Assembly (NCBI GenBank): GCA_008933835.1
Contig: WBUG01000002.1
Coordinates: forward strand, 62,929 to 126,928
Origin: Bacteroidota bacterium
GTDB taxonomy: Bacteria; Bacteroidota; Ignavibacteria; UBA10030; UBA8401
Direction: 5' to 3'
Length of the DNA stretch: 64,000 nt
Under the pieces are notes generated by a model. That model was not told the origin of the DNA. It did no database searches and saw nothing but the letters and a program-made list of their open reading frames with translations. How positions within the stretch are numbered: the first letter of the stretch is position 1; each line of letters opens with the position of its first letter. The position numbers and the translations under genes were made by a program. Shown in pieces: positions 5,032 to 62,558 of the stretch.

Positions 5032-6233
5032 AAAAGAACCTCACCATCGCCGCGGCCGCCGCCGTCCTCATCGGTCTGGTCCTCTTCGGACGCGGAACCG
5101 TCGTGGCGGACGATGCAGCGCCGGCGGACAAGACGCAGCTCATCAAGTTCTCCCATGCCAAGCACGCCGAGGCCGGTGCCGAATGCGCGTCCTGTCATAA
5201 AGCGGACCTCAGCGACAACTCCTCGGACCGCATGCTCCCCGGCCACGCCGAGTGCCAGTCCTGCCACGAGCAGGAAGTGAACGAGAATTGCTCCTTCTGC
5301 CACACCAATCCCGACGATCCGCAGGCCCTTCCCAATCCCGTCCGCTCCCTCTTCTTCAGCCATAAACAGCATGTCGGTATGGAGGGGGTGAAGTGCGAGA
5401 CGTGCCATCAGGGGATGGACAAAGCGGACTTCGCCGGTCATCAGAACCTTCCCGCCATGGCGACCTGCAATACGTGCCATAACGACGTGAAGGCGACGAA
5501 CCAGTGCGAAGCGTGCCACACGGACCTCTCGAACCTCCGTCCGGCGTCGCACAACGTTGCCAATTTCAAGCGCGAGCATGCGCGCGTCATGAGCCTCCGC
5601 ACGTTCGAAGCGAAGTGCCAGTCCTGCCACACCGAGCAGTCCTGCGCTGAGTGTCATGACGGCACCAATCTGACCGAACTGGCCCCCGGCGTGAAGAGCG
5701 GTCTGCTCTCGCCGCGGCACGCCGCCGGCGACAAGGCGGTCGCTCTGGCGGGCGAAGCGGTGCACGGCATGAACTACCGCTTCACGCACGGCATCGATGC
5801 CAAAGGCCGCGCGGCGGACTGCCAGACCTGCCACAGCAGCCAGCAGTTCTGCAGCGACTGCCACATGAACGGCTCCGCCGCCCTCGGCGGTGCGATGCCC
5901 ACCAGCCATGAGGCGCCCGGCTTCACCACCATCGGCGTCGGATCGGGCGGCGGCTCGCATGCGACCCTCGCGAAGCGCGACATCCAGCGCTGCATGACCT
6001 GTCACGACACGGAAGGGGGCGACCCCAACTGCATCACCTGCCATGCGGACTACGACGGCATCAAGGGGACCAATCCCCGGACGCACAAGAGCGGCTTCAT
6101 GAAGGATAACGAACACGGCGAATGGCACGACGATGCGAACGCGAACTGCTTCGTCTGCCATACGGACGCCAATGCCAAACCGAGCGGAAGACCGGGACAG
6201 GGATTCTGCGGATATTGCCATGGTGTGAAATGA
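5028..6233 (+). CDS. periplasmic 14-heme c-type cytochrome (MtrA/OmaB-like periplasmic conduit cytochrome)
   Basis: The ATG at 5028 overlaps the porin stop (ATGA). Signal peptide is MKKNLTIAAAAAVLIGLVLFG. There are 14 CxxCH motifs: CASCH, CQSCH, CSFCH, CETCH, CNTCH, CEACH, CQSCH, CAECH, CQTCH, CSDCH, CMTCH, CITCH, CFVCH and CGYCH. Confidence 0.85.
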   Translation: MKKNLTIAAAAAVLIGLVLFGRGTVVADDAAPADKTQLIKFSHAKHAEAGAECASCHKADLSDNSSDRMLPGHAECQSCHEQEVNENCSFCHTNPDDPQALPNPVRSLFFSHKQHVGMEGVKCETCHQGMDKADFAGHQNLPAMATCNTCHNDVKATNQCEACHTDLSNLRPASHNVANFKREHARVMSLRTFEAKCQSCHTEQSCAECHDGTNLTELAPGVKSGLLSPRHAAGDKAVALAGEAVHGMNYRFTHGIDAKGRAADCQTCHSSQQFCSDCHMNGSAALGGAMPTSHEAPGFTTIGVGSGGGSHATLAKRDIQRCMTCHDTEGGDPNCITCHADYDGIKGTNPRTHKSGFMKDNEHGEWHDDANANCFVCHTDANAKPSGRPGQGFCGYCHGVK

Positions 6234-53876: not shown

Positions 53877-55040
53877 ATGATACGTTATCTTACCGCCGGC
53901 GAATCGCATGGACAGGCGCTCGTCGGCATCGTTGAAGGCATCCCCGCCGGAGTTCCTCTTACGGCCGCCTACATCGATCATCAATTGTGGAGACGTCAGC
54001 AGGGGTACGGGAGAGGGGGTCGGATGCGCATCGAATCCGACACGGTGGAGATCCTCTCCGGTGTCCGGTTCGGACGGACGCTCGGTTCGCCGGTCGCATT
54101 GATGGTGCGGAACAGGGATTGGCAGAACTGGACGGAAAAGATGGCGGTGGAGGGGAATGGAAAAGGGATCGAAAAGATAACGCTGCCGCGACCCGGCCAT
54201 GCCGATTATGTCGGAGCGCTGAAGTACGGTTTCGATGACATCCGGAACGTCATCGACAGGGCGAGCGCTCGTGAGACCGCCATGCGGGTGGCATGCGCCA
54301 GTGTGGTCCGCCGTCTTCTGGAAGAAATCGGCATTACCATCGGATCCCATGTCACCTCCATCGGGAAAGTGACACTGGCGGACCGCCGTGCGGTGGACAC
54401 GCTCATCCGGAAGTGCTCTCCAGACATGACGGACATCGCTGATGCCGCGGACGCCTCAGAGGTTCGGATGCTGGAACGGGCCGCGGAAGCGAAGGCCATC
54501 AACATCATTAAATCGTGCAAAAAGAAGGGTGATACGCTCGGCGGAACCTTCGAGGTCCTTGTCGGCGGTGTTCCGGCGGGTTTGGGAAGCTACGTGCAGT
54601 ACGACCGCAAACTCGACGGTCAGCTCGCGGCCGCGGTCATGTCCATCCATGCCGTGAAAGGGGTTGAGATCGGCGATGGTTTCGCGAATTCCGGACGATA
54701 CGGCTCGGAGGTGCATGACGAGCTGCTGGCGAAACGCGGTGTAGTCACCCGTCCCACGAACCGTGCCGGGGGAATGGAAGGGGGGGTGACGAACGGAGAA
54801 CTCCTCGTCATCCGCGGCGCGATGAAACCGATCGCCACACTGGCGCATCCGCTCCGTACGGTCGACATCCGGTCGAAAAAGACCGCCCGCTCCCGCTATG
54901 AACGGTCCGACGTCTGCGCTGTACCCGCCTGTTCGGTCATCGCCGAGGCGGCCGTCGCGCCGGTCATCGCGAACGCTTTCCTGGAGAAATACGGCGGCGA
55001 TTCGCTGCGGGAGGTCTCCGCGCGGTTCAAGCGGCGGTGA
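53877..55040 (+). CDS. aroC: chorismate synthase
   Basis: MIRYLTAGESHGQALVGIVEGIPAGVPL...RQQGYGRGGRMRIESD. Confidence 0.93.
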   Translation: MIRYLTAGESHGQALVGIVEGIPAGVPLTAAYIDHQLWRRQQGYGRGGRMRIESDTVEILSGVRFGRTLGSPVALMVRNRDWQNWTEKMAVEGNGKGIEKITLPRPGHADYVGALKYGFDDIRNVIDRASARETAMRVACASVVRRLLEEIGITIGSHVTSIGKVTLADRRAVDTLIRKCSPDMTDIADAADASEVRMLERAAEAKAINIIKSCKKKGDTLGGTFEVLVGGVPAGLGSYVQYDRKLDGQLAAAVMSIHAVKGVEIGDGFANSGRYGSEVHDELLAKRGVVTRPTNRAGGMEGGVTNGELLVIRGAMKPIATLAHPLRTVDIRSKKTARSRYERSDVCAVPACSVIAEAAVAPVIANAFLEKYGGDSLREVSARFKRR

Positions 55041-55212
55041 AAGCGGTTCCGGTAAATTGATATTCACCACCGCCGTTCGTATATTTCATTGGAATTTCAT
55101 GCAAGGCCGGATGTCTCTCAAAGTATCGCTCGAGGGTATCCGGCAAAGTGGTTTTCCGGTATCATGAAAGGATGCCGAACAGCGGTTCCGGTCCGAACCG
55201 GGACCAGGGAGG

Positions 55213-55764
55213 ATGTGCGTCTTCAGTTCGCTCTTCCAATCGAAAAGCATACACGGCCGTTTGAACAGCAAAGTACTGGTGCTGAACCAGAACTATGAAC
55301 CGCTGAGCGTCTGTAACGTCAAGAAGGCCATCATACTCCTCTTCCTTGGGAAGGCGGAGATGATCGAGACCAGCAACGGCAAGACGCTGCGGTCCGTGAC
55401 GATGACATTCCCGTTCCCGAGCGTCGTTCGTCTTTCCGTCTTCGTGCGAGTCCCCTACAAAAAGATCATCCTCTCCCGGAAGAACATCCTCCGGCGGGAC
55501 GGTCACCGCTGCCAGTACTGCGGACGGGGGGACGTTCCGCTGACGGTGGACCATGTGGTGCCGAAGTCGCGCGGAGGTGAGGACACGTGGGAGAACCTGG
55601 TGGCCGCCTGCGTGAGATGCAACAATAAGAAGGGGGACCGGATGCCGGATGAAGTGAACATGCCGCTGCACCGTCCGCCGGTCAAACCGAACCACGTCAC
55701 GTTCATCCGGCATTTCGTCGGCAACATGGACGAGCGGTGGAAACCGTACCTGTTCCAGAACTGA
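55213..55764 (+). CDS. HNH endonuclease family protein
   Basis: C-terminal HNH motif HRCQYCGRGDVPLTVDHVVPKSRGGEDTWENLVAACVRCNNKK. Start is uncertain: the ATG at 55213 abuts the gggagg sequence. Confidence 0.7.
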   Translation: MCVFSSLFQSKSIHGRLNSKVLVLNQNYEPLSVCNVKKAIILLFLGKAEMIETSNGKTLRSVTMTFPFPSVVRLSVFVRVPYKKIILSRKNILRRDGHRCQYCGRGDVPLTVDHVVPKSRGGEDTWENLVAACVRCNNKKGDRMPDEVNMPLHRPPVKPNHVTFIRHFVGNMDERWKPYLFQN

Positions 55765-55791
55765 TCATACACCGCATCGACGGACACGACC

Positions 55792-56808
55792 GTGAGCGAC
55801 ACCAAGAAACGAATCCTGAGCGGCATGCGCCCCACCGGAAAGCTCCACATCGGCCATCTGGTCGGTGCGCTGGAGAACTGGGTGGCGCTGCAGGACCGCT
55901 ATCAGAACTTCCATCTCATCGCGGACTACCATGCGCTGACGACGAACCTGGACACGACGGAGCTCTATCAGAATTCGTTGGACATGGTCATCGACTGGCT
56001 CGCGGCCGGCATCGATCCGGCGAAGAGCCCGGTCTTTCGGCAGTCCCAGGTGAAGGAGCACACCGAGCTTCACCTCATCTTCTCCATGCTCGTCACCACC
56101 GCGCGGCTGGAACGCAATCCCACGCTGAAGGATCAGGTGCGGGACCTGAACATGGAGACGCTCGTCTACGGCCATCTCGGTTATCCGGTGCTGCAGGCGG
56201 CCGACATCCTGCTCTATAAAGGGGAGGTGGTGCCGGTGGGAGAGGACCAGGTGCCGCATATCGAGATCACGCGCGAGATCGCGCGCCGCTTCAACAACCA
56301 GTGGGGTGAGGTCTTCCCGGAACCGGAGCCGAAGCTCACGAAGTTCGCACGTCTGGCGGGGCTCGACGGCGGGCAGAAGATGAGCAAGTCGCTCGGCAAC
56401 ACCATCCTCCTCTCCGATACGCCGGAGGAGATCCAGAAGAAGATGCGCACCGCGGTGACCGACACGCAGAAGGTCCGGAAGAACGACCCGGGCCGGCCGG
56501 ACGTGTGCGTCGTCTTCTCGTACCATCAGAAGTTCAACCCGGCGGAGGTCCCCGAGATCCGCCGCGACTGCGAGTCCGGCGCGCTCGGCTGCGTGGCGTG
56601 CAAGCTCAACTGCTCGGCGAAGGTGGCGGCGGTACTGGCGCCGGTGCGGGAACGCCGCGCGGCGCTCGAGGCCGATATGGACCATGTGCTGGACGTGCTC
56701 CGGACCGGCGAAGCGGCGGCGCGCGCCGAGGCGGCGCGGACCATGGAGCAGGTGCGCGAGGCGATGAAGGTGGGAGCCGTGAAGACCGAATCCATCAACG
56801 TCAGGTAG
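55792..56808 (+). CDS. trpS: tryptophan--tRNA ligase
   Basis: Class I HIGH (TGKLHIGHLVG) and KMSKS (KMSKSLGN) motifs. GTG start. Confidence 0.93.
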   Translation: MSDTKKRILSGMRPTGKLHIGHLVGALENWVALQDRYQNFHLIADYHALTTNLDTTELYQNSLDMVIDWLAAGIDPAKSPVFRQSQVKEHTELHLIFSMLVTTARLERNPTLKDQVRDLNMETLVYGHLGYPVLQAADILLYKGEVVPVGEDQVPHIEITREIARRFNNQWGEVFPEPEPKLTKFARLAGLDGGQKMSKSLGNTILLSDTPEEIQKKMRTAVTDTQKVRKNDPGRPDVCVVFSYHQKFNPAEVPEIRRDCESGALGCVACKLNCSAKVAAVLAPVRERRAALEADMDHVLDVLRTGEAAARAEAARTMEQVREAMKVGAVKTESINVR

Positions 56809-56813
56809 ACCGA

Positions 56814-57545
56814 ATGTACCGCGTCAAGCTCACGGACTTCGAGGGGCCTCTCGACCTGCTGCTGTTCTTCATCAAGCGGGACGAGCTGGACATCTACGAC
56901 ATCCCCATCGCGCGGATCACGAAAGAGTTCCTCGAGTACCTGCAGTACCTGCAGGAGCTGGACCTGGACATCGCCGGCGAGTTCATCGTCACCGCCGCCG
57001 AGCTGATGCAGATCAAGGCGCAGATGCTCCTCCCGCGTCCCGAAGGGGAGGGGGAGGAGGAGTTCGACCCGCGCGCCGAGCTCGTCCGGCGGCTGCTGGA
57101 GTACAAGCGTTGGAAGGAGATGGCGGAGGAACTGGAGCGGATGCAGCTGCAGCACCGCCGCGTGGCGTACCGCGGGAACTTCGAGCACGACCCGAAGGTC
57201 GTCGAACAGGAGGACGCCGACGACCTCATCCGTGACGTGACGCTGTTCGACCTCATCGCGGCGTTCCAGTACGCCGTGAACAAGATGCCGCGCAAGCACG
57301 TGCACGAGATCAACAAACTGAACGTCACCCTCGAGGAACAGATCGACCACATCCTGCGCCTGTTCGACGGGAAGGACCAGATCTCCTTCTATGATATCGC
57401 CCTGGCGATGACGGAGAAGATCCGCATCGTGGTGACCTTCCTCGCGCTGCTCGAGATGATGAAATCCAAGCTCATCGCCATCAGTCAGTTCGAACCGTAC
57501 GGAGACATCACCATCGTGAAACTGCCCGTGGAGGCCGCCGCATGA
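56814..57545 (+). CDS. scpA: segregation and condensation protein A
   Basis: MYRVKLTDFEGPLDLLLFFIKRDELDIYDIPIARITKEFLEYL. An internal ATG is chosen; the upstream track extension overlaps trpS. Confidence 0.88.
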   Translation: MYRVKLTDFEGPLDLLLFFIKRDELDIYDIPIARITKEFLEYLQYLQELDLDIAGEFIVTAAELMQIKAQMLLPRPEGEGEEEFDPRAELVRRLLEYKRWKEMAEELERMQLQHRRVAYRGNFEHDPKVVEQEDADDLIRDVTLFDLIAAFQYAVNKMPRKHVHEINKLNVTLEEQIDHILRLFDGKDQISFYDIALAMTEKIRIVVTFLALLEMMKSKLIAISQFEPYGDITIVKLPVEAAA

Positions 57546-58774
57546 GCGAGGGACAGCAGGAGATCAACGTATCCGAGGTGGAGGTCACCGTCGAGGTGCG
57601 GAACATCATCGAAGCGCTCGTGTTCGCCAGCGACGAACCGATGAGCGTGCGGATGATCCGCGGCCTGATGGACGAAGTGAACAAGGACCGGCTGCCGCAC
57701 GAACAGCTCGCCGTCAACGCGGAGATCATCCGGAAGGCGGTGGGGGAACTGAACAAGGGGTACGCCCGGATGGGGAGCGGGTTCCGCATCTCCGAGATCG
57801 CGGGCGGTTTCGTCTACACCACGCTCGAGCACTTCGCGTCGTGGGTCGGCCGTCTGGCGAAGGAACGCGCGCGGCGCCGCCTCTCGCCCACCGCCGTCGA
57901 GACCCTCGCCATCATCGCGTACAAGCAGCCCATCACCAAGACCGAGGTGGAGTTCATCCGCGGCGTGAACGTGGACTACATCATCAACGCGCTGCTGGAG
58001 AAGGACCTCATCCACATCACCGGGCGGCAGAACTCCCCGGGGCGTCCGCTCCTCTACGGCACCACGCCGAAGTTCCTGGAGCACTTCGGCCTCAACGAGC
58101 TGACCGACCTTCCGAAACCGCGCGAGATCGCCGAGCTCATCAGCGAGACGGAGATCGAGGTGGACCGGCGGCTCCTCGCCGAGCAGCAGGAACTGGAGTT
58201 CCGCGAGAGTCTCGAGAACAAGCTCGAAGGGCACGAAGGGACCGCCAAGAAACAGAAGGAGAAGGAGCGCACGCCGCGCGCACCGAAGGTGAAGGTGCCG
58301 GACGAGGTCACGGCGGAACGGCTGGAGAAGGAGCGGGCCGAGAAGAACACGGAACCGGCGAAGGAATCGGAAGCGGCGGTGCCGGAAGCGCCCCCCGCTG
58401 CCGGCGAAACGGCCGCCGTCATCCTCCCGGAACCGGCGGACGAGACCGTCCTTCCCGCGCCCGACGACGGTCCGGCGGAACCGCTGGCGGAACCCGCGCC
58501 GGAGTTCGCGGAACCGGCCGTCGTCGAAACGCCGGCGGACGAACCGGAACCCGCCGCGTCGGAGATGCCGGACGCGGACGTAACGGAACAGACAGCGCCG
58601 AAGCCGCTCATGGTCTTCGGCGAAGAAGGAGTACGGACATCAGAAAGCCGCCATCACACACAAGAGGACGACCGGCACCCCGCCGACGCCCACGGCCATC
58701 CGGAGGAGGGCGCGCACGGATGGAGCAAGTGGAAGAACAAGGTAAAGTCGTTCTTCAAGAAACTGTTCGGATAA
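57542..58774 (+). CDS. scpB: segregation and condensation protein B with extended acidic/Pro-rich C-terminal tail
   Basis: The ATG overlaps the scpA stop (ATGA). IIEALVFASDEPMSVRMI... is a winged-helix ScpB core of about 190 aa. A low-complexity tail of about 220 aa follows, ending WSKWKNKVKSFFKKLFG. Confidence 0.8.
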   Translation: MSEGQQEINVSEVEVTVEVRNIIEALVFASDEPMSVRMIRGLMDEVNKDRLPHEQLAVNAEIIRKAVGELNKGYARMGSGFRISEIAGGFVYTTLEHFASWVGRLAKERARRRLSPTAVETLAIIAYKQPITKTEVEFIRGVNVDYIINALLEKDLIHITGRQNSPGRPLLYGTTPKFLEHFGLNELTDLPKPREIAELISETEIEVDRRLLAEQQELEFRESLENKLEGHEGTAKKQKEKERTPRAPKVKVPDEVTAERLEKERAEKNTEPAKESEAAVPEAPPAAGETAAVILPEPADETVLPAPDDGPAEPLAEPAPEFAEPAVVETPADEPEPAASEMPDADVTEQTAPKPLMVFGEEGVRTSESRHHTQEDDRHPADAHGHPEEGAHGWSKWKNKVKSFFKKLFG

Positions 58775-59484
58775 ACCGGTTCCTTGCCATGGCGGGGGTC
58801 TCGTCCCGCCGCGCCGCGGAGGAACTGGTGCGCAGCGGCGAGGTCGAGGTGAACGGGACGGTGGTGACCGACCTGGCCACCAAGGTGACGCCGTACAAGG
58901 ACACCGTCACCGTCTCGGGCAAGAACGTCTCGGCGGCCCAGAAGTTCATCTACGTGCTGCTGCACAAACCGAAGGACGTCATCACCACCGTCAGTGACGA
59001 GAAGGACCGCCGGACGGTGATGGACCTCGTCTCCGTACGCGAACGCATCTATCCGGTGGGACGGCTCGACCGCAACACCTCCGGCGTGCTGCTGCTGACC
59101 AACGACGGCCCGCTGGCGGCCCGTCTCATGCATCCCTCGAACGAAGTGGTGAAGTCGTACCACGTGTCGCTCGACAAGACGCTCGACAATGCGCATGCGG
59201 AGAAGCTCGCGAACGGTGTCCACCTCGAGGACGGGAAGACCGCTCCGTGCCAGCTGGACATCGTCCCCGGCACGAAGAGCCGCGAAGTGGTGATCCATAT
59301 CCACGAAGGGAAGAACCGGCAGGTGCGCCGAATGTTCGAATCGCTCGGGTACGAAGTGGAGAAGCTCCACCGGACCGTGTACGCCGGGCTCACCCTGAGC
59401 GGACTGGGGCGCGGCCGCTGGCGTTTCCTCACGGACCGCGAACTCCGTTCACTGCGGCGGGCGGCCGGTATCACCGCCGAGTGA
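58720..59484 (+). CDS. rluB: pseudouridine synthase, RluB/RsuA family (S4 domain plus catalytic domain)
   Basis: S4-like RINRFLAMAGVSSRRAAEELVRSGEVEVNG, then catalytic VGRLDRNTSGVLLLTNDG. An ATG at 58720 is required to retain the S4 N-terminus and overlaps scpB by 55 nt. Confidence 0.8.
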   Translation: MEQVEEQGKVVLQETVRINRFLAMAGVSSRRAAEELVRSGEVEVNGTVVTDLATKVTPYKDTVTVSGKNVSAAQKFIYVLLHKPKDVITTVSDEKDRRTVMDLVSVRERIYPVGRLDRNTSGVLLLTNDGPLAARLMHPSNEVVKSYHVSLDKTLDNAHAEKLANGVHLEDGKTAPCQLDIVPGTKSREVVIHIHEGKNRQVRRMFESLGYEVEKLHRTVYAGLTLSGLGRGRWRFLTDRELRSLRRAAGITAE

Positions 59485-59507
59485 ACACACTCTGAACCGA
59501 CAACACC

Positions 59508-61049
59508 ATGGACCACACACGTTCCTCCGGCATCCTGCTCCACCCCACATCCCTTCCCGGCCCGTACGGCTCCGGCGATCTCGGACCGTCCGCCTACCAC
59601 TTCGTCGACTGGCTGGTCGTCGCCGGCCAGTCGCTCTGGCAGACGCTGCCGTTGGGACCGGTGGGAATGGGCGACTCCCCCTACATGTGTCTCTCCGCCT
59701 TCGCCGGCGAACCGCTGCTCATCGACCTCGAAGAGCTCGTCCGCCGCGGCTGGCTGTTGCGTGAAGAATTGGACCGGCATCCGCGCTTCGATGAACGCGC
59801 GGTGCGCTTCGGCGACGTCCGCTCGTTCCGCATGGAGAAACTCCGTTCCGCCGCCGATGCGTTCTTCGGCCGGGGGAGCGCGGATGAGAGGAGCGAGTTC
59901 GACCGCTTCTGCCGGGCGCAGCGTTCCTGGCTCGACGACTATGCGCTCTTCATGGCGCTCATCGGCCGCTCCAACGGCGCGGAGTGGTGCACATGGGACC
60001 CCGACCTGGTGAAGCGGAAACCCGCTGCGCTGAAGAAGGCGCGGACGGAGCTGCAGGACGACGTGCGCTTCTGGGAGTTCACCCAATGGTGCTTCTTCCG
60101 GCAGTGGCATGCGCTCAAGAAGTACGCGAACGAACGCGGCGTACGCATCGTCGGCGACATCCCCATCTTCATCGCCTACCAGAGCTCGGACGCCTGGGCC
60201 AACCAGCATCTCTTCCACCTCGACAAGGACCTCCGGCCGAAGTTCGTCGCCGGCGTACCGCCGGACTACTTCAGCGTCACCGGACAGCGCTGGGGGAATC
60301 CTCTCTATGACTGGAAGGCGATGCACGAAGAACAGTACGCCTGGTGGATCGACCGCATCCGCACCACGCTCGAACTCGTCGACGTCGTCCGTGTCGACCA
60401 CTTCCGCGGTTTCGCGGGATACTGGGAGATACCGGCGGAGGAGAAGACCGCGGTGAAGGGACGCTGGGTGAAAGGACCCGGAGCGAAACTGTTCGACGTC
60501 ATCCAGAAGAAGCTCGGCACGCTCCCCATCATCGCCGAGGACCTCGGCGACATCACGCCGGACGTCATCGAACTCCGCGACCGGTACGATTTCCCCGGCA
60601 TGCGCATCCTCCAGTTCGCGTTCGCCGGCGACGTGAAGAACGGATTCCTTCCGCACAACTACGTCGCGAACACCGTCGTCTACTCGGGCACGCACGACAA
60701 CGACACCACCGCCGGATGGTTCGCCGCCGCCACGGAACGGGAGCGGGTCTTCGTGCAGCGCTACCTTCACACCGACGGACGGGAGATCCACTGGGACTTC
60801 ATCCGCGCCGCCTCCGCCTCCGTCGCGGTGATGGCGGTGTTCCCGTTCCAGGACGTGCTCGGCCTGGGGACCGAGGCCCGCATGAACATGCCGGGCCAGG
60901 CGCTCGGCAACTGGGCGTGGCGCTTCTCGTGGGACCAGGTGAATCCGACGCATGCACAGCGTCTGTACGACATCACGGCGATGACCAACCGCACCGCGGC
61001 GGACCGTCTGCAGCTCCCGTCCTATCCCGCCGGCAAAGCGCAGCCGTAA
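59508..61049 (+). CDS. malQ: 4-alpha-glucanotransferase (amylomaltase, GH77)
   Basis: SSGILLHPTSLPGPYGSGDLGPSAYHFVDWL...; overall GH77 layout. Confidence 0.9.
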   Translation: MDHTRSSGILLHPTSLPGPYGSGDLGPSAYHFVDWLVVAGQSLWQTLPLGPVGMGDSPYMCLSAFAGEPLLIDLEELVRRGWLLREELDRHPRFDERAVRFGDVRSFRMEKLRSAADAFFGRGSADERSEFDRFCRAQRSWLDDYALFMALIGRSNGAEWCTWDPDLVKRKPAALKKARTELQDDVRFWEFTQWCFFRQWHALKKYANERGVRIVGDIPIFIAYQSSDAWANQHLFHLDKDLRPKFVAGVPPDYFSVTGQRWGNPLYDWKAMHEEQYAWWIDRIRTTLELVDVVRVDHFRGFAGYWEIPAEEKTAVKGRWVKGPGAKLFDVIQKKLGTLPIIAEDLGDITPDVIELRDRYDFPGMRILQFAFAGDVKNGFLPHNYVANTVVYSGTHDNDTTAGWFAAATERERVFVQRYLHTDGREIHWDFIRAASASVAVMAVFPFQDVLGLGTEARMNMPGQALGNWAWRFSWDQVNPTHAQRLYDITAMTNRTAADRLQLPSYPAGKAQP

Positions 61050-61070
61050 CGACCAACTTCGGGACCGACC

Positions 61071-62558
61071 ATGACACGACTCATCCTCATTTCGCTCGCG
61101 CTCTTCGCCGCCGGCTGCACAACGCAGCAGGCGCTGCATGATGCGGACTCGCCGCTGGGCCGTCTCCGGCAGACGCTCGACGAGAAGTTCGACGATCCGC
61201 AGTTCGACAACGCGCACTGGGGGGTCCTCATCCGTTCCCTCAAGACCGGCGAGACGGTCTACGCGCGGAACGAACGGAAGATGTTCATGCCGGCATCGAA
61301 CCTCAAGCTCTTCACCTCGTCCGTCGCGATGATGACGCTCTCGCCGGACTACCGGTACACGACGCGTCTCGCCGCGAACGGTCCGGTGAAGGACGGCGTG
61401 CTGGCGGGCGACCTCGTCGTGATCGGCAGCGGCGATCCGACCATCTCCGGCCGGTACAACGACGGCCGGGTGACCGAGACGTTCGAGCAGTGGGCGGACA
61501 GTCTTCTTGCGAAGGGGATCCGCCGCATCGACGGTGCCGTCGTCGGGGACGACAACGCGTTCGAGGACGAACCGTACGGCACCGGCTGGTCGGCGGACTA
61601 CGAGACCGACTACTACGCGGCGCAGATGTCCGCGCTGACCTTCAACGACAACTGTGTCGATGTGCGACTCGTGCCGTCAGCGGTCACGGGCGACCTCTGT
61701 TCGCTCTCGGTCGTGCCGGACACGAAGTACGTCACGTTCATCAATCAGACCGTCACCGCGCCGCCGGCGGATTCCGTGAGCGACGTCTGGTTCCACCGGG
61801 TGCGCGGCACGAACACCGTGTACGTGCGCGGACGCATGTCGCCGGGGAAACCGGCGTGGCTCGAATCGGTGGCCATCGACAATCCGACGCTCTACGCCGC
61901 GACCGTGCTCCGCGAAGTGCTCCTGTCCAAAGGCATCACCGTCGCCGGACCCGCGCAGGACATCGACGACCGGAAGGATTCTCTGAGGAGCGCCGGCCTG
62001 CCCGTCCTGGCCTCGTTCACCTCGGTGCCGTATTCCGTCATCGTCCGCACCATCAACAAGCCGAGCCACAATCTGTACACGGAACAGGTACTGCGGACCA
62101 TCGGGAAGGAGCGCTCCGGTAGCGGCGTCGGCTCCGTGCGCGCCGGTCAATCGGCGGCCCTGCCGGTCCTCGCCTCCTGGGGGGTCGACACCGTCCGCTT
62201 GCGCTATGCGGACGGTTCCGGACTCTCGCGCCTCAATCTGGTGACGCCGAAGGACATCGTCGCCATCCTGGAAGGGATGCACGCCGGACCGCACTTTCTG
62301 CCGTTCTATGAATCGCTCCCCATCGCGGGGGTGGACGGCAGCATCCGGAACCGGATGAAGGGAACGAAAGCGGAAGGGAACGTGCACGCCAAGACCGGGT
62401 TCATCGGCTACGTCCGCGCCCTTTCCGGGTACGTCACCTCCGCCGACGGAGAGATGTACGCGTTCTCGATGATCGCCAATCACTACACGGTCCCCACACG
62501 GGTGGCGGAGAAGGTGCAGAACGACGTCTGCGTCCTCCTGGCCGGATTCTCCCGGTGA
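61071..62558 (+). CDS. dacB: D-alanyl-D-alanine carboxypeptidase/endopeptidase (PBP4, peptidase S13)
   Basis: Lipoprotein signal LFAAGC. SxxK-type MPASNLKLFTS, SxN and KTG (AKTGFIGYVRALSGY) motifs. Confidence 0.85.
   Translation: MTRLILISLALFAAGCTTQQALHDADSPLGRLRQTLDEKFDDPQFDNAHWGVLIRSLKTGETVYARNERKMFMPASNLKLFTSSVAMMTLSPDYRYTTRLAANGPVKDGVLAGDLVVIGSGDPTISGRYNDGRVTETFEQWADSLLAKGIRRIDGAVVGDDNAFEDEPYGTGWSADYETDYYAAQMSALTFNDNCVDVRLVPSAVTGDLCSLSVVPDTKYVTFINQTVTAPPADSVSDVWFHRVRGTNTVYVRGRMSPGKPAWLESVAIDNPTLYAATVLREVLLSKGITVAGPAQDIDDRKDSLRSAGLPVLASFTSVPYSVIVRTINKPSHNLYTEQVLRTIGKERSGSGVGSVRAGQSAALPVLASWGVDTVRLRYADGSGLSRLNLVTPKDIVAILEGMHAGPHFLPFYESLPIAGVDGSIRNRMKGTKAEGNVHAKTGFIGYVRALSGYVTSADGEMYAFSMIANHYTVPTRVAEKVQNDVCVLLAGFSR

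Follow-up and report, generated by a model that had tools for sequence, protein, structure and literature searches.

The gene scpB of a 64,000-nucleotide stretch of Bacteroidota DNA (contig WBUG01000002.1 of assembly GCA_008933835.1; the whole stretch is hereafter referred to as the window) encodes ScpB, a subunit of the Smc-ScpAB condensin, with a C-terminal tail of 218 amino acids beyond its conserved core. This tail ends in a cationic segment of 18 residues, GWSKWKNKVKSFFKKLFG (residues 393-410; 58718..58771), which is predicted to fold as an amphipathic helix and is a candidate membrane-targeting sequence. Judging from its sequence and relatives, the proposal that this helix targets the membrane in the way of the MinD and FtsA anchors, and thereby tethers Smc-ScpAB to the membrane, stands at about an even chance. 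All features located below lie on the plus strand, unless otherwise indicated.

Architecture of the long ScpB

The scpB open reading frame (ORF; 57542..58774) comprises 410 codons plus a stop codon. By sequence, its product is a genuine ScpB, a member of the ScpB family: (i) the Pfam model SMC_ScpB (PF04079) matches residues 22-192 only, i.e., the double winged-helix core (57605..58117), with 165.8 bits versus a cut-off of 27.4; (ii) the NCBIfam ScpB equivalog TIGR00281 matches residues 21-198, with 110.5 bits versus a cut-off of 89.2; and (iii) the ScpB chains 1t6s, 3w6j, 4i98 and 2z99 of the PDB, which are 162-219 residues long, align to residues 21-203 only (best E = 3e-30). Since all these matches stop at residues 192-203, there is an extension of about 218 residues, in agreement with the original prediction of a ScpB that continues for some 220 residues past its core. 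It is well established for the family that a ScpB dimer binds the kleisin ScpA; for the window protein, this binding is expected by virtue of family membership.

The anatomy of the protein was derived from alignments and from an AlphaFold2 model run on an alignment of 77 sequences. In this model, the core has block-mean predicted local distance difference test (pLDDT) values of 64-96. Beyond the core, the following segments can be distinguished: (i) a conserved post-core helix, PREIAELISETEIEVDRRLLAEQQELEFRESLENKL (residues 193-228; 58118..58225), with a pLDDT of about 74-86 and many invariant alignment columns; (ii) a polyanionic, hypervariable linker (residues 229-392; 58226..58717), which is predicted to be disordered, as the model gives it no secondary structure and block-mean pLDDT values of about 39-50; and (iii) the terminal cationic amphipathic helix, modelled as helical at residues 394-409 with a pLDDT of 74-85. 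The tail had originally been described as disordered up to its terminal helix, which holds for residues 229-392 but not for residues 193-228, predicted to form the conserved helix.

With 41 Glu, 29 Ala and 25 Pro among its 218 residues (19%, 13% and 11%, respectively), the tail fits the earlier description of an acidic, Pro-rich low-complexity region. Nevertheless, the only part of this description that extends to the relatives is the charge. The linker is net negative in each 20-residue block from residue 261 to residue 380, and it is likewise net negative in 115 of the 115 homologues measured (median, -21). On the other hand, the richness in Ala and Pro is peculiar to this genome because of its high guanine-plus-cytosine (GC) content, which reaches 68-73% in the tail segment of scpB. 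The linkers of relatives with a lower GC content are rich in Glu, Ser, Thr, Gln, Asn and Lys, and net negative charge is the only property they conserve. Linker length ranges from 107 to 360 residues in these 115 homologues, and the linkers of different subclades cannot be aligned with each other.

Three further details of the linker can be mentioned. A semi-conserved basic patch, GTAKKQKEKERTPRAPKVKV (residues 233-252; 58238..58297), comes right after the post-core helix, is seen again as KKxKxPKQPKVKVP across the clade and could be a DNA-contacting segment. The semi-conserved motif VFGEEG (residues 358-363; 58613..58630), for which the nearer relatives have [VI]F[GS]E[EK]G, lies some 35 residues ahead of the terminal helix and may be a second short linear motif. 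Finally, residue 322 (58505-58507) is Phe in the window and Ile in the otherwise identical database protein P0001.

Authenticity of the tail

A tail of this kind might be an assembly or sequencing artefact, that is, the readthrough of non-coding or out-of-frame DNA after a frameshift or the loss of a stop codon. In favour of such an origin, several frames are open in this region of 68-73% GC, and the canonical ScpB proteins of neighbouring families are only about 180-260 residues long. In that case, homologues ending at about 200 residues, with the downstream gene starting right after them, had been anticipated. A search across 5.8 billion proteins gave the opposite result: 115 of the 120 best matches share both the tail and the terminal peptide. 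The remaining five are truncated or partial, and the one that was checked (P0120, at locus L170) is itself a frameshifted long form, as the next frame encodes the whole tail and the motif. More than 100 homologues with 42-85% identity and lengths of 358-668 residues align over their full length, and once more distant variants are included, the same layout is found in at least 151 related ScpB proteins (288-668 residues). The tail is thus conserved among related ScpB proteins, a point on which the original prediction had asked for a check. Long-form homologues come from NCBI, JGI, ENA and Logan, and a protein identical at 409 of 410 positions (F322I) occurs in independent Logan assemblies.

The nucleotide sequences point in the same direction. 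The loci used for comparison came from a genome-contig scan and from exact-protein look-ups. Compared with the closest relative (locus L171), the tail has indels of 6, 12 and 45 nucleotides, all of them multiples of three, and 16, 20 and 41 substitutions at codon positions 1, 2 and 3, respectively. Codon differences amount to 23 synonymous and 35 non-synonymous in the tail versus 23 and 7 in the core. From these patterns, the tail is translated in the scpB frame, with relaxed constraint in its middle and strong constraint at its ends. Homologue lengths, in-frame indels and third-position bias together rule out a frameshift or a readthrough, and an artefactual origin deserves practically no credence.

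Two split genes were observed among the loci compared, both in ENA assemblies: scpB of L170 is divided into pieces of 278 and 121 residues, and malQ of L166 into pieces of 376 and 125 residues. These frameshifts are probably assembly errors rather than signs of pseudogenes.

The terminal peptide

In proteins of the window type, the last 18 residues follow the consensus GWSKWKxK[VI][KQ]TFFxKLF[GA]. The window peptide has a net charge of +6 and a hydrophobic moment of 0.65 (Fauchere-Pliska scale), the highest of any 18-residue segment of the whole ScpB. Its maximum falls at an angle of 95-100 degrees per residue, and only 0.7% of shuffled sequences reach 0.65. Among the 115 close members, the moment ranges from 0.51 to 0.66 and the charge from +4 to +6; more distant variants have moments of about 0.47-0.72 and charges of +3 to +6. 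When the divergent member L005 was used as the query, additional variants were retrieved, such as ERGWSKFTQRIRDLLKRLFG, RTRWQTWKEKIQTFIKKLFA and TKWEQFKDTIRGFIKKVFG. The peptide is always C-terminal, first in 115 of 120 and then in 151 homologues, the protein ending 0-1 residue after the final Phe.

The distribution of residues around the helix was calculated over the 151 proteins, which contain 75 distinct 18-mers. Positions 2, 5, 9, 12, 13, 16 and 17 (W2, W5, V/I9, F12, F/I13, L16 and F17) are always large hydrophobic residues and occupy an arc of 20-160 degrees. The regular expression with which the peptides were collected demanded hydrophobic residues at these same seven positions; all long-tailed proteins except two truncated ones passed it and, in consequence, no real variant was filtered out. 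Positions 6, 8, 14 and 15, which flank the hydrophobic arc on both sides, are Lys or Arg in at least 88% of cases, and positions 3, 4, 7, 10 and 11 vary freely (1.5-2.6 bits of entropy). Acidic residues are found nearly always at positions 7, 11 and 18, in the middle of the polar face (240-280 degrees); one of the 75 peptides has one at position 3. We take this radial charge pattern to be that of a lipid-associating class A amphipathic helix. The HeliQuest discriminant (0.944 x hydrophobic moment + 0.33 x charge) of the peptide is about 2.6, far over the lipid-binding threshold of 1.34.

Both features that had been proposed for the end of the tail are thereby borne out: it is a basic amphipathic helix by prediction, and it carries the signature of a membrane-binding helix, on which all the computational tests agree (helix prediction, periodicity, charge, faces, flanks, linker, and likeness to MinD and FtsA). 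At the level of sequence, the helix shows every trait of a MinD/FtsA-type anchor, i.e., terminal position, flexible lead-in, predicted helicity, hydrophobic moment, charge and well-separated faces.

A profile of the last 30 residues was compared with 1.84 billion representative sequences. This profile was narrow and of the window type, and it missed the divergent variants that were found later. It gave 27 matches, all of them ScpB proteins or fragments of ScpB tails with the peptide at the extreme C-terminus, save one spurious repeat protein; the idea that the peptide is a portable module also present on other proteins was rejected accordingly. The same profile gave no match to the PDB sequences, even at E = 10. 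A beta-clamp-binding motif was also considered. Such motifs are of the QLxLF type, which FF[KRQ]KLF[GA] does not resemble, and the Gln is not conserved; this candidate was dropped.

Overlap with the downstream pseudouridine synthase gene

The codons of the terminal peptide are shared with the next gene, which encodes an RluB-like pseudouridine synthase (58729..59484) with the Pfam domains S4 and PseudoU_synth_2. Its product passes only the general subfamily model TIGR00093 and neither the RluB nor the RluF equivalog; since the former is not passed, the name rluB is only approximate. The synthase is read in frame +2 with respect to scpB. In 14 of 15 loci, the last 7 nucleotides of scpB, stop codon included, already belong to the S4 motif R[LIV]N[RK]F[LI]A of the synthase (RLNRFLA in the window), whose R-L/I-N codons enclose this stop codon.

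According to the original prediction, the last 18 codons of scpB overlap rluB by 55 nucleotides. The overlap itself stands, as it is present in 14 of the 15 loci examined (it is absent in L167), but the comparative loci favour a shorter one. A length of 55 nucleotides corresponds to a possible start at ATG 58720, formed by GGA-TGG; of 14 comparison loci, 8 have GTG or CTG in its place, and L165 has a stop in the same frame after it. The codon GTG 58729, formed by AAG-TGG, is retained by all of the 13 overlapping loci whose peptide is of the window type, and the divergent L005 has ATT there. Because of the retention of GTG and the losses of ATG, the synthase most likely starts at GTG 58729, which gives a dual-coding overlap of 46 nucleotides (58729..58774). 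In the overlapping loci, the interval from the two Trp codons of the peptide to the S4 motif contains no start codon.

This arrangement raises the question of whether the ScpB peptide, functionless in itself, is conserved merely because its DNA also has to start the synthase and encode its N-terminus. The overlap of 46-55 nucleotides in 14 of 15 loci speaks for it, and so does the fact that the ATG and GTG starts are both provided by Trp codons of the peptide, and a GGAG sequence by TGG-AGC. However, the pattern of variation is that of a selected ScpB frame. Over the 18 motif codons of 15 loci, nucleotide diversity is 0.17 at the first, 0.15 at the second and 0.41 at the third ScpB codon position; the least variable ScpB position is the third position of the synthase frame, and the most variable one, the ScpB third position, is the first position there. 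At the amino-acid level, the motif region has a diversity of 0.25 in the ScpB frame versus 0.49 in the other, whose peptide is thus twice as variable. Moreover, the two genes are 68 nucleotides apart in L167, without any overlap, and ScpB still ends in GWGKWKTKIKTFFQKLFT. In Ignavibacteriaceae and Melioribacteraceae, the Met of the synthase stands directly before RLNKF, with an overlap of only a few nucleotides; the synthase of Ignavibacteriaceae requires no such leader. On the strength of the codon-position diversity and the retention of the motif in L167, the terminal peptide is, as judged by sequence comparison, under strong purifying selection in the ScpB frame. Conservation caused by the overlapping gene is largely refuted and now appears highly improbable.

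A long N-terminal extension of the synthase was rejected as well. The frame of the synthase is open over 547 codons (57841..59484) and spans most of the scpB tail; it is interrupted by stops just upstream in L004 and just after the ATG in L165, and the encoded peptide is not conserved. Antisense ORFs of 200-700 residues are also found in 55000-61500. Both the 547-residue ORF and the antisense ORFs are open frames resulting from a GC content of 64-73%, and not genes.

The annotation of the synthase is inconsistent among relatives. Automatic calls frequently place the start at the Met of LAMAG, 15 nucleotides past the scpB stop codon (L161, L162, L163, L164, L169 and L171), whereby the S4 domain loses its conserved beginning, RLNRFLA; in other pipelines, the gene is called from the overlapping GTG or ATG. 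In the divergent Ignavibacteriota metagenome-assembled genome (MAG) that contains L005, the ScpB motif reads GWSRFRNKVAELFKRLFG (5111-5167 of the locus), and the synthase frame upstream of RLNRF has CTG and ATT but neither ATG nor GTG.

Proposed membrane tethering and alternative functions

If the helix is a membrane anchor, it would be expected to rest flat within the cytoplasmic leaflet, its Trp, Phe, Val and Leu residues being buried and its Lys and Arg residues snorkelling to the anionic lipid head groups. Because ScpB is known from its family to sit as a dimer on ScpA, each Smc-ScpAB complex would have a pair of these helices, each at the end of a long, flexible leash; the linker of the window protein, of about 160 residues, would have a contour length of 50-60 nm. 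In this way, the condensin, loaded with DNA, would be attached peripherally to the inner membrane in a reversible, avidity-dependent manner. The acidic linker would prevent the cationic helix from binding DNA and would hold nucleoid and membrane at a distance from each other, and in the last 15-18 codons of the helix, translation of the RluB-like synthase would be initiated and its N-terminus encoded. The wider claim, namely that Smc-ScpAB is directly tethered to the membrane via a dedicated ScpB anchor, with two helices per complex and polyanionic leashes of about 50-100 nm, falls just short of an even chance.

Several observations weigh against a membrane anchor, and some of them favour instead a helix that works as a short linear motif. 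Such a motif could dock on a partner (the Smc head or hinge, ScpA, ParB, or a division or replication protein) or bind DNA non-specifically via its Lys and Arg residues, the linker being only a leash; the C-terminal tails of FtsZ and SSB function like this. First of all, sequence conservation within the window's subclade is very high: W2, W5, K6 and F17 show little or no variation, which is far above the conservation of usual membrane anchors and more typical of a specific protein contact, though the dual coding adds constraint. Secondly, the narrow window-type profile found the peptide on ScpB alone and, in consequence, there is no support by association with known membrane proteins; restriction to ScpB would be natural for a docking motif. 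Thirdly, other phyla end their acidic ScpB tails in different conserved short motifs, as do the Fibrobacterota with, for instance, the acidic-hydrophobic DDALFEVKL, which suggests that ScpB tails may generally carry partner-binding peptides. In addition, one-sided conservation is also typical of helices that bind in a groove, and a loop extruder permanently tethered to the membrane is mechanistically awkward.

Nevertheless, at greater evolutionary distance only the physico-chemical pattern of the helix survives, and its polar face swaps Lys, Thr, Gln, Glu, His, Asp, Ser and Gly. Furthermore, the basic flanks, the acidic centre, and the two Trp and three Phe residues are what binding at a lipid interface predicts; a protein groove has no obvious need for them. 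As regards DNA, a face of seven aromatic and aliphatic residues would be unnecessary, and the adjacent polyanion would compete for the helix. All in all, docking on a partner or on DNA is the main rival of the membrane anchor, possible though less likely.

The helix could also fold back on the linker, or on the ScpB or ScpA core, as an intramolecular latch that regulates ScpB (its engagement with DNA or with the Smc head, or its phase behaviour). The opposite charges of linker and helix (median of -21 versus +4 to +6), present in 115 of 115 close members, are in keeping with a latch. However, electrostatics alone require neither a conserved hydrophobic face nor invariant Trp and Phe residues, the length of the linker differs more than 3-fold, and the AlphaFold2 model shows a free-standing helix (as read from the per-residue output, which carries no contact information). 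We consider a latch improbable as the main function; in any case, it is compatible with membrane binding as an extra regulatory layer, and it could coexist with either a membrane anchor or a docking motif.

Distribution of ScpB tails

When genomes were scanned with each species represented once, the motif was found only in MAGs labelled Bacteroidetes or Ignavibacteriota (L001-L005). A scan of metagenome contigs gave no motif-bearing locus among the 80 loci kept from at least 600 candidates; these 80 were general ScpB genes. By these comparisons, the 18-residue cationic amphipathic helix is specific to an uncultured, Ignavibacteria-related lineage of Bacteroidota.

As for other groups, the ScpB proteins of Ignavibacteriaceae and Melioribacteraceae are about 215 residues long and have a short acidic end; those of Cytophagia are about 180-190 residues long. 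Acidic tails without the helix are present in Balneolaceae, Nitrospirota, Endomicrobia and others. The ScpB proteins of Fibrobacterota (L044; P0137-P0256, including Chitinispirillaceae) have long acidic tails (up to about 690 residues), and their tail-end motifs include (i) the MinD-like QKKGFFSKIRKKKK(EESEE); (ii) DDALFEVKL, at the C-terminus; (iii) LEIFLPE; and (iv) EEFLPK. Tails appear to be a widespread accessory of ScpB and, together with their lineage-specific terminal peptides, they appear to constitute a wider, undescribed theme.

Genomic context

The gene scpB is preceded by scpA (56817..57545), which encodes a kleisin of 242 residues (Pfam SMC_ScpA, E = 1e-38). The stop codon of scpA and the start codon of scpB overlap by 4 nucleotides, as they do in most related loci, and the order scpA-scpB is kept in 12 related loci. 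The genes trpS, an HNH-domain gene and aroC lie 5' of scpA, and the S4/PseudoU_synth_2 gene, malQ and the gene of a PBP4-type peptidase lie 3' of scpB; relatives show the same gene order.

The HNH-domain protein (183 residues; 55213-55764) is encoded between aroC and trpS, a position that is kept in related loci. Its HNH segment is IscB/Cas9d-like, yet it scores 77 bits versus a cut-off of 175, and the protein is a stand-alone HNH protein. An Rfam scan of the whole window gave no match, and a promoter and terminator scan of 55000-61200 gave nothing above chance and no terminator-like site on the plus strand.

Implications

According to the current view, bacterial chromosomes are positioned with respect to the envelope by dedicated adaptor proteins, and the SMC condensin is a purely nucleoid-bound motor. 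If the ScpB helix does bind the membrane, then one bacterial lineage would wire the SMC motor itself to the membrane, and ScpB would be the first core subunit of a bacterial SMC complex that itself links chromosome and membrane. A ScpB anchor could replace or supplement proteins such as RacA, Noc, RicO or PopZ, and it would raise the question of how loop extrusion proceeds in an anchored complex. The peptide is short, portable and testable in standard hosts, and the lineage represents a natural experiment on whether a tethered SMC complex works.

From a practical point of view, two aspects deserve attention: (i) since gene callers shun the overlap, the downstream synthase is routinely annotated too short; and (ii) the ScpB tails of the Fibrobacterota-Chlorobiota-Bacteroidota (FCB) group bear lineage-specific terminal motifs that had not been described. 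A literature search gave no relevant paper on a ScpB membrane-targeting sequence, on an acidic tail or C-terminal extension of ScpB, or on a membrane-tethered Smc-ScpAB complex. We know of no description of a membrane-binding helix on an accessory subunit of an SMC motor complex.

Comparison with known systems

Canonical ScpB proteins, such as those of Geobacillus (3W6J), S. pneumoniae (4I98) and Chlorobium tepidum (1T6S), have the same double winged-helix core and occupy the same place right after scpA. But while canonical proteins stop soon after the LPxPxE segment, at about 160-220 residues, the window ScpB adds 218 residues and the terminal helix; none of the solved ScpB structures covers residues past position 203. 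The NCBIfam family NF001106 ("ScpB, long form") is also longer than the usual ScpB. Its extension is, however, N-terminal, with the ScpB core at profile positions 231-364 of 377, and the window protein is no member of it: only these core positions align, and the score is 87.9 bits versus a cut-off of 300.

In general layout, the protein is reminiscent of FtsZ and SSB, in which a folded domain is followed by a linker of variable sequence and restricted composition, and by a conserved C-terminal peptide that binds proteins. ScpB shares the folded domain, the compositionally constrained linker and the short conserved C-terminal peptide. The terminal peptides of FtsZ and SSB are, nonetheless, acidic-hydrophobic or short, instead of an 18-residue cationic amphipathic helix.

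Concerning links between chromosome and membrane, Noc of B. subtilis is a DNA-membrane bridging protein with an amphipathic helix. In S. aureus, RicO bridges DNA and membrane by means of a DNA-binding domain and a C-terminal amphipathic helix (10.64898/2026.03.06.710092). The window ScpB would likewise join a nucleoid-associated module to a membrane-binding amphipathic helix, an architectural analogy drawn from sequence. RicO and Noc are direct DNA binders and dedicated tethers, whereas the ScpB helix sits on an accessory subunit of an SMC motor complex.

The helix itself resembles the experimentally verified C-terminal anchors of MinD, i.e., KGMMAKIKSFFG in B. subtilis (10.1101/2024.06.11.598461) and KGFLKRLFGG in E. 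coli (PMC5471200), and of E. coli FtsA, GSWIKRLNSWLRKEF (PMC9098913). Like MinD, ScpB ends in a cationic amphipathic helix at its extreme C-terminus; short stretches are almost the same, namely KVKSFF of ScpB and KIKSFF of B. subtilis MinD, and FFKKLFG of ScpB and FLKRLFG of E. coli MinD, and avidity through dimerisation is plausible for both proteins. Yet the host protein is unrelated, and the likeness is a resemblance, with no homology detectable by profile search. In addition, the ScpB helix has 18 residues versus about 10-12 in MinD, contains two Trp residues, is preceded by a polyanionic linker of 107-360 residues, and comes without an ATP switch. With FtsA, ScpB shares a C-terminal, Trp-containing cationic amphipathic helix on a flexible linker, as well as a similar hydrophobic moment (0.61 in FtsA versus 0.65 in ScpB). 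The linker of FtsA is short and not polyanionic, and what FtsA anchors is the Z-ring instead of a DNA-bound complex.

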